Origin: Escherichia coli
GTDB lineage: Bacteria; Pseudomonadota; Gammaproteobacteria; Enterobacterales; Enterobacteriaceae
Assembly (NCBI RefSeq): GCF_002854065.1
Contig: NZ_CP024147.1
Reading direction: 5' to 3' (one strand)
Length of the DNA: 64,000 nt
Positions within the stretch are counted from its first letter, which is position 1; each line of letters starts with the position of its first letter. This document shows positions 4,335-4,424 of the stretch, piece by piece. A program made the translations under genes and the position numbers. The notes below the pieces were generated by a model. The model ran no database searches and was not told the DNA's origin. It saw only the letters and a program-made list of their open reading frames with translations.

Positions 4335-4424
4335 TAGTGAAACACTGTTTCGTTTTCTCTATAAGGGGATGATATGCCCATGGGATAGGGTTTTCAATTA
4401 AAAATAAAACAATGTTTCATTTTT
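4335..4424. promoter_or_regulatory. Two KdgR-box-like palindromes in the kduI promoter region
   Basis: TGAAACACTGTTTCG at about 4338-4352 and AAATAAAACAATGTTTCATTT at 4402-4422; both resemble the KdgR operator consensus (AAATGAAACA-N-TGTTTCATTT). Confidence 0.5.

Follow-up and report, generated by a model that had tools for sequence, protein, structure and literature searches.

The control of kduI by the repressor KdgR is already known as a regulatory interaction in E. coli, a model organism. Shimada et al. (2019; PMC6958661), citing Rodionov 2000/2004, described kduI/kduD and eda as carrying a KdgR box, listed kduD as a known KdgR target and observed by Northern blot a higher level of kduD mRNA when kdgR is mutated. 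Over-expression of both kduI and kduD in a strain with a deletion including kdgR was reported by Sastry et al. (2019; PMC6892915), who predicted that KdgR represses them, and in Klebsiella the loss of kdgR likewise raises kduD expression (PMC8612250). With regard to the inducing conditions, galacturonate or glucuronate induces the E. coli kduI promoter 7- to 54-fold (PMC3578941), and kduI is reported to be CRP-activated (PMC8085971). The operator itself is a 21-bp palindrome whose consensus, as given by Rodionov et al. (2000, 2004) and quoted in PMC5559549, is AAATGAAACAnTGTTTCATTT.

The locus studied here lies in a window of 64,000 nucleotides, by which we mean the whole stretch of E. coli DNA that was analysed, and shows the E. 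coli gene order araE-kduD-kduI-yqeF-yqeG. Since kduI is on the minus strand, higher window coordinates are upstream of kduI, and its regulatory spacer occupies 4293-4578 (286 bp), bounded by the 3' end of yqeF. The features to which the text refers are listed as follows.

2665-3426, minus strand: kduD, 2-dehydro-3-deoxy-D-gluconate 5-dehydrogenase (NCBIfam TIGR01832/NF006528 above cut-off; RefSeq)
3456-4292, minus strand: kduI, 5-dehydro-4-deoxy-D-glucuronate isomerase, 278 aa, with the GTG start at 4292-4290 inside ATGTG
4298-4302, minus strand: kduI Shine-Dalgarno sequence GGAGG, read from the sequence and conserved in the alignment
4335-4355, palindrome: candidate proximal KdgR-type operator O1, centre 4345, read on the kduI strand as AAACGAAACAGTGTTTCACTA
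4362, minus strand: predicted transcription start, a conserved A, inferred at 7 nt after the -10 hexamer in the 82-sequence alignment
4369-4374, minus strand: predicted -10 hexamer TATCAT (promoter scan), with the TA..AT positions at least 95% conserved
4392-4397, minus strand: predicted -35 hexamer TTGAAA (promoter scan), conservation 0.99
4402-4422, palindrome: candidate distal KdgR-type operator O2, centre 4412, read on the kduI strand as AAATGAAACATTGTTTTATTT
4445-4460, minus strand: CRP-like site CGTGATCGACACTGCA, centred at about -90.5 from the predicted start
4579-5763, minus strand: yqeF, acetyl-CoA C-acetyltransferase, upstream of kduI on the same strand

The identity of kduI is secured by the NCBIfam equivalog NF002091, which scores 455.7 bits (cut-off 250), and the RefSeq annotation on identical DNA agrees; in E. 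coli XJ34, where RefSeq annotates these genes, the spacer DNA is identical over all 286 bp. The downstream kduD is separated from kduI by a gap of 29 bp and the two genes are probably co-transcribed, the name "kduID operon" being used in PMC6958661. For the translation start, PMC9841429 gives GGAGGU for kduI and places the gene among the AUGUG initiation contexts. An out-of-frame ATG overlaps the GTG start (ATGTGG, window 4290-4294), and the frame opened by it ends after 3 codons (ATG TGG ACG TAA). Among 5,426 complete E. coli genomes the yqeF-kduI spacer was found in 5,418, and a K-12-like genome shows 9 differences from the window over the 286 spacer positions, all of them outside the boxes and the promoter hexamers.

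Insertion sequences were seen in the wider neighbourhood. The window holds two complete and identical 768-bp IS1 copies at 7421-8188 and 8212-8979, in the same orientation and 23 bp apart, which adjoin yqeG in the yqeH region; copy 1 has the 9-bp direct repeat GCATAACTT on both sides, and a third IS1 terminal repeat is found at 15435-15457. At the yqeG/yqeH position XJ34 carries a single IS1. In E. coli D53-1 an IS1 has entered the yqeF-kduI spacer itself (locus 748-1445), upstream of the CRP-like site, with the promoter and both boxes intact.

Within the spacer, the initial annotation had pointed to a GAAACA/TGTTTC repeat at some 45-60 bp from the kduI start and to a second site about 65 bp further up, both of them said to resemble KdgR boxes. 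The first of them is present as described: GTGAAACACTGTTTCG stands at 4337-4352, the perfect GAAACA/TGTTTC inverted repeat occupies 4339-4351, and the distance from the centre of O1 to the kduI start codon is 53 nt. The second, AAAACAATGTTTCATTT, is found at 4406-4422, and the centre of O2 is 67 bp beyond that of O1. The likeness to KdgR boxes was borne out by the agreement with the consensus, the rank in a weight-matrix scan, the placement around the promoter and the conservation across genera. Of the 20 specified positions in the KdgR consensus, O1 matches 17 and O2 matches 19. Counted by mismatches, no other E. coli site examined comes as close to the consensus as O2, and O1 is level with the sites of kdgT and tabA and ahead of that of kdgK, a classical KdgR target.

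Each 40-nt box segment occurs at a median of 1 place per E. coli genome and at most 2, being single in nearly all of them, which means that the boxes are no dispersed repeat. The 40-nt query for the proximal box remained without a match in about 1,600 of the 5,426 E. coli genomes. A variant proximal box was seen in E. coli Ecol_656, where GTTTTATTA replaces GTTTCACTA in the part aligned to window 4335-4343; this allele has GTTTTAT for GTTTCAC, by which one consensus match is gained and one lost, and the mismatches stay at 3.

The statistical significance of the two boxes was evaluated in two ways. First, the pattern RAAACANTGTTTY occurs twice in the 64-kb window, both occurrences being these boxes, with 0.02 expected from 100 dinucleotide-preserving shuffles, none of which reached 2. 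Second, a position weight matrix was trained on six sites of K-12 MG1655 (kdgK, kdgT, eda, tabA/yjgK, yeeO and ygjV) with kduI left out, taking for each of these KdgR-regulon or PlaR-gSELEX target genes the best upstream consensus match and symmetrising the result; since the training sites were picked by their similarity to the consensus, the matrix is independent of kduI and not of the consensus. The scan with this matrix, which had been proposed as a check on the initial annotation, ranks the boxes first and second among 63,980 window positions, O2 with 26.8 bits and O1 with 20.7 bits, against 20.0-28.3 bits for the training sites and 13.2 bits for the third-best position in the window. Thirty Markov-1 random sequences of 64 kb gave no match at either box score. 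Further KdgR sites in the window were sought and rejected, as the next matches, at 20651-20671 and at 10241-10261 (the latter within an ORF), have about 13 bits and are at background level.

As to the promoter, a promoter scan of 4200-4700 gave a sole sigma-70-like match, TTGAAA-17-TATCAT on the minus strand (10/12), and the constitutive kduI promoter obtained by gSELEX with the RNA polymerase holoenzyme has the same hexamers and spacing (PMC3946193). Relative to the predicted start, O2 would span about -60 to -40 with its centre at about -50 and stop 4 bp short of the -35 hexamer, and O1 would span about +8 to +28 with its centre at about +18. In this layout, whose start site is predicted, the two boxes bracket the kduI promoter, beyond simply being upstream of the gene. 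Thus the placement first given to them needs to be refined: they do stand upstream of the kduI start codon, but they flank the promoter, with O1 in the early transcribed region. No description of a promoter bracketed at the conserved 67-68 bp was found in the literature searched; Rodionov 2004 or a regulatory-site database may contain one, and precisely this pair of sites, with its spacing, has likely been tabulated already.

Farther upstream, the CRP-like site has in this strain a strong left half and a weak right half, with 4/10 mismatches to TGTGA-N6-TCACA. Its CGTGATC half (4460-4454) reaches a conservation of 0.97 in the 82 Enterobacteriaceae sequences, and in 55 of 80 loci the best match to the CRP consensus, often with 2/10 mismatches, is placed 41.5 bp upstream of the O2 centre. 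The candidate at about -90.5 was compared with the class I CRP positions near -61.5, -71.5, -82.5 and -92.5. Such a conserved CRP-like site is consistent with the reported activation of kduI by CRP. CRP was also considered as a binder of O1 and rejected: the AGTGA half alone resembles TGTGA, and GTTTC agrees with TCACA at 0/5 positions. A yqeF terminator was likewise discarded as an account of the boxes, since the sole terminator-like hairpin (4484-4497) lies well upstream of them; the boxes themselves have AT-rich stems of 6 bp around a 1-nt centre.

For the evolutionary side, we collected 80 kduI loci of Enterobacteriaceae, one genome per species and with 91-99% protein identity, and aligned 82 sequences over 200 bp upstream of kduI. 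The alignment consists of discrete conserved islands amid variable DNA. In O2 the two half-sites have conservation values of 0.93 and 0.90 and the central 3 nt 0.60, and in O1 the half-sites have 0.92 and 0.75 and the central 3 nt 0.44; the -10 hexamer has 0.81 and the stretch from the ribosome-binding site to the start codon 0.86. The corresponding values are 0.64 for the promoter spacer, 0.49 for the rest of the 5' UTR and 0.40 for the far upstream region. A helix-turn-helix repressor that binds as a dimer is expected to leave such a pattern, with the half-sites constrained and the centre free. O2 scores at least 13.3 bits in 79/80 kduI upstream regions. O1, with a median of 12 bits across the loci, is weaker in most genera, its typical form being AAACGGAAC-N4-GTTTCG; its core CGRAAC-N4-GTTTY is kept across genera, and in 52/80 species the O1 score falls below the background maximum of the window (13.3 bits), hence the strength of O1 differs by lineage. 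The distance between the box centres is 67 bp in 52 loci and 68 bp in 19, that is 67-68 bp in 71/80, and the most simple explanation for so fixed a spacing is the promoter between the boxes. An E. coli-like kduI with 99% identity was also met on the MAG contig JACZXR010000090.1 (360-560), which is labelled Deltaproteobacteria; the ribosome-binding site is kept there, and the sequence above it is unrelated and has no boxes. This contig is probably chimeric or a contaminant.

Taken together, these results lead us to regard the two palindromes, with a probability of roughly 85%, as operators of the IclR-family KdgR controlling the sigma-70 promoter of kduI-kduD. What speaks for this reading is the palindrome match, the placement in the promoter region of a gene of the KDG/hexuronate pathway and the conservation of the half-sites. 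In the searchable literature, which was without Rodionov 2004 and Murray & Conway 2005, we found no E. coli KdgR footprint or EMSA on either kduI box; the literature searched likewise gave no experiment separating the contributions of O1 and O2, and the IclR-family supplement had no E. coli kduI entry.

KDG is the ligand that releases KdgR from DNA, and on this basis a course of regulation may be proposed. When KDG is lacking, KdgR dimers would occupy both operators, the occupancy of each box being inferred. The alpha subunits of the polymerase would have to reach DNA and CRP in the region of O2, so a KdgR dimer bound to it, between the CRP-like site and the -35 hexamer, would prevent recruitment and activation by blocking the upstream polymerase contacts as well as the CRP-dependent activation. 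KdgR on O1, in the downstream polymerase footprint, may hinder open-complex formation or promoter escape. These steric details are our interpretation for both operators, and in the same way dual operators might provide the tight repression that was initially proposed. KDG arising from the catabolism of hexuronates or oligogalacturonides would then take KdgR off the DNA and permit the expression of kduID, which CRP would tie to the carbon status. The biological role first attached to the locus, namely pectin degradation, has to be given up, for E. coli does not degrade pectin and its kduID works in hexuronate/KDG-related catabolism (PMC3578941).

Regarding how the two boxes work together, it is conceivable, though we consider it doubtful, that they are non-redundant, either by a division of labour between KdgR and PlaR or by KdgR assembling into a higher-order complex which would wrap or loop the promoter and trap RNA polymerase instead of just keeping it out. 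Non-redundant boxes are suggested because the spacing is strictly conserved and because the box flavours differ systematically: throughout the Enterobacteriaceae the distal box reads TGAAAC...GTTTTA and the proximal one CGGAAC...GTTTCG. On the other hand, 67 bp correspond to about 6.4 helical turns, by which a simple in-phase loop is not favoured.

A related question is which protein the boxes serve. PlaR (YiaJ) is an IclR-family paralogue, and the boxes could be mainly its operators, with the effects of KdgR being indirect. The kduI spacer was in fact recovered by PlaR gSELEX, the PlaR box, given as ATnTGAAACnnnGTTCAnTT, resembles the KdgR box and is a palindrome nearly identical to the kduI boxes, the kduD mRNA is increased in the plaR mutant, and the plaR and kdgR mRNAs each increase upon deletion of the other gene (PMC6958661). 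Moreover, in the gel shifts of that paper PlaR moved all twelve target probes, ten with high affinity and two with low affinity; the probes are not named one by one in its text, and the boxes were not individually resolved. However, the PlaR concentration in these gel shifts was 1-5 uM (PMC6958661), the text on the in vivo ChIP-exo of YiaJ describes two yiaJ-yiaK peaks only (PMC6237786), and the YiaJ i-modulon comprises 10 genes annotated as putative ascorbate utilisation (PMC6892915), so that the regulon of PlaR in vivo centres on, and appears confined to, the yiaK operon. The sequences argue in the same direction: the candidate PlaR operator of yiaK has 8/20 mismatches to the KdgR consensus versus 1 and 3 for the kduI boxes, which are therefore far nearer to that consensus than the yiaK operator is. 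Besides, kduID becomes derepressed once kdgR is lost, as seen in two studies on E. coli (PMC6958661, PMC6892915) and in Klebsiella (PMC8612250). Boxes belonging mainly to PlaR are thus quite unlikely, whereas some co-regulation of kduI by PlaR is plausible; and because PlaR also binds the spacer in vitro, KdgR can be named as the in vivo occupant of each box only provisionally.

An action at the RNA level is far less probable still. In this reading a 5'-UTR hairpin made up of the proximal palindrome with its flanking sequence (AGAAAACG...CGTTTTCT) would affect mRNA stability or translation, and the predicted 5' UTR does fold into an extended hairpin around O1 with -16.7 kcal/mol, which is underlain by the imperfect inverted repeat AGAAAACGA...TCGTTTTCT (window 4320-4358, minus strand). 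But this fold, with a z of -1.73, is not significant, and 12 of 200 shuffles fold equally well; its outer arm (4334-4320) varies from genus to genus, in line with the low value of the 5' UTR outside the box (0.49); O2, being upstream of the promoter, cannot act as RNA; and the Rfam search gave no family match, the sole match being a spurious one to a microRNA model (E = 0.31). Finally, short palindromes are common in AT-rich DNA such as this spacer, which PMC3946193 flags as H-NS-bound, but a chance origin of the boxes as AT-rich inverted repeats of no regulatory function is excluded by the pattern and matrix statistics given above together with the half-site-specific conservation and fixed spacing over dozens of genera.

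With KdgR retained as the preferred regulator, the layout of CRP-like site, operator, promoter and operator is confirmed by independent statistics and by a footprint over 80 species. It may be used for annotation and for the engineering of KDG- or hexuronate-responsive promoters, and leaves the current understanding unchanged; the sharing of the boxes in vivo by KdgR and its paralogue PlaR is a point of modest interest.

In comparison with other known systems, the kduI locus shares with the tandem operators of IclR-family tetramers (PMC8222616) the protein family and the use of multiple palindromic sites at one promoter. The site centres of those tandem operators are 18-22 nt apart, whereas those of kduI are separated by 67-68 bp, have the promoter between them and are not adjacent on the same helix face. 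Judged by this geometry, two dimers that bind the kduI sites separately seem more likely than a single tetramer spread over tandem sites, and the out-of-phase spacing and the difference from the IclR tandem sites likewise favour independent binding.

An analogous logic, with two repressor sites over kduI-kduD, is met in Bacillus subtilis, whose kduID operon reportedly has two KdgR-binding sites (Lin & Shaw 2007). The KdgR of B. subtilis is a LacI-family protein and its operator sequence is unrelated; the likeness would then be convergent and not homologous. The closest system is still the gamma-proteobacterial KdgR regulon known from Dickeya dadantii and E. coli, whose boxes agree with those of kduI in the 21-bp palindrome, its half-sites and its 1-nt centre, and which has the same type of KDG-pathway target and the same repressor logic, without essential difference.
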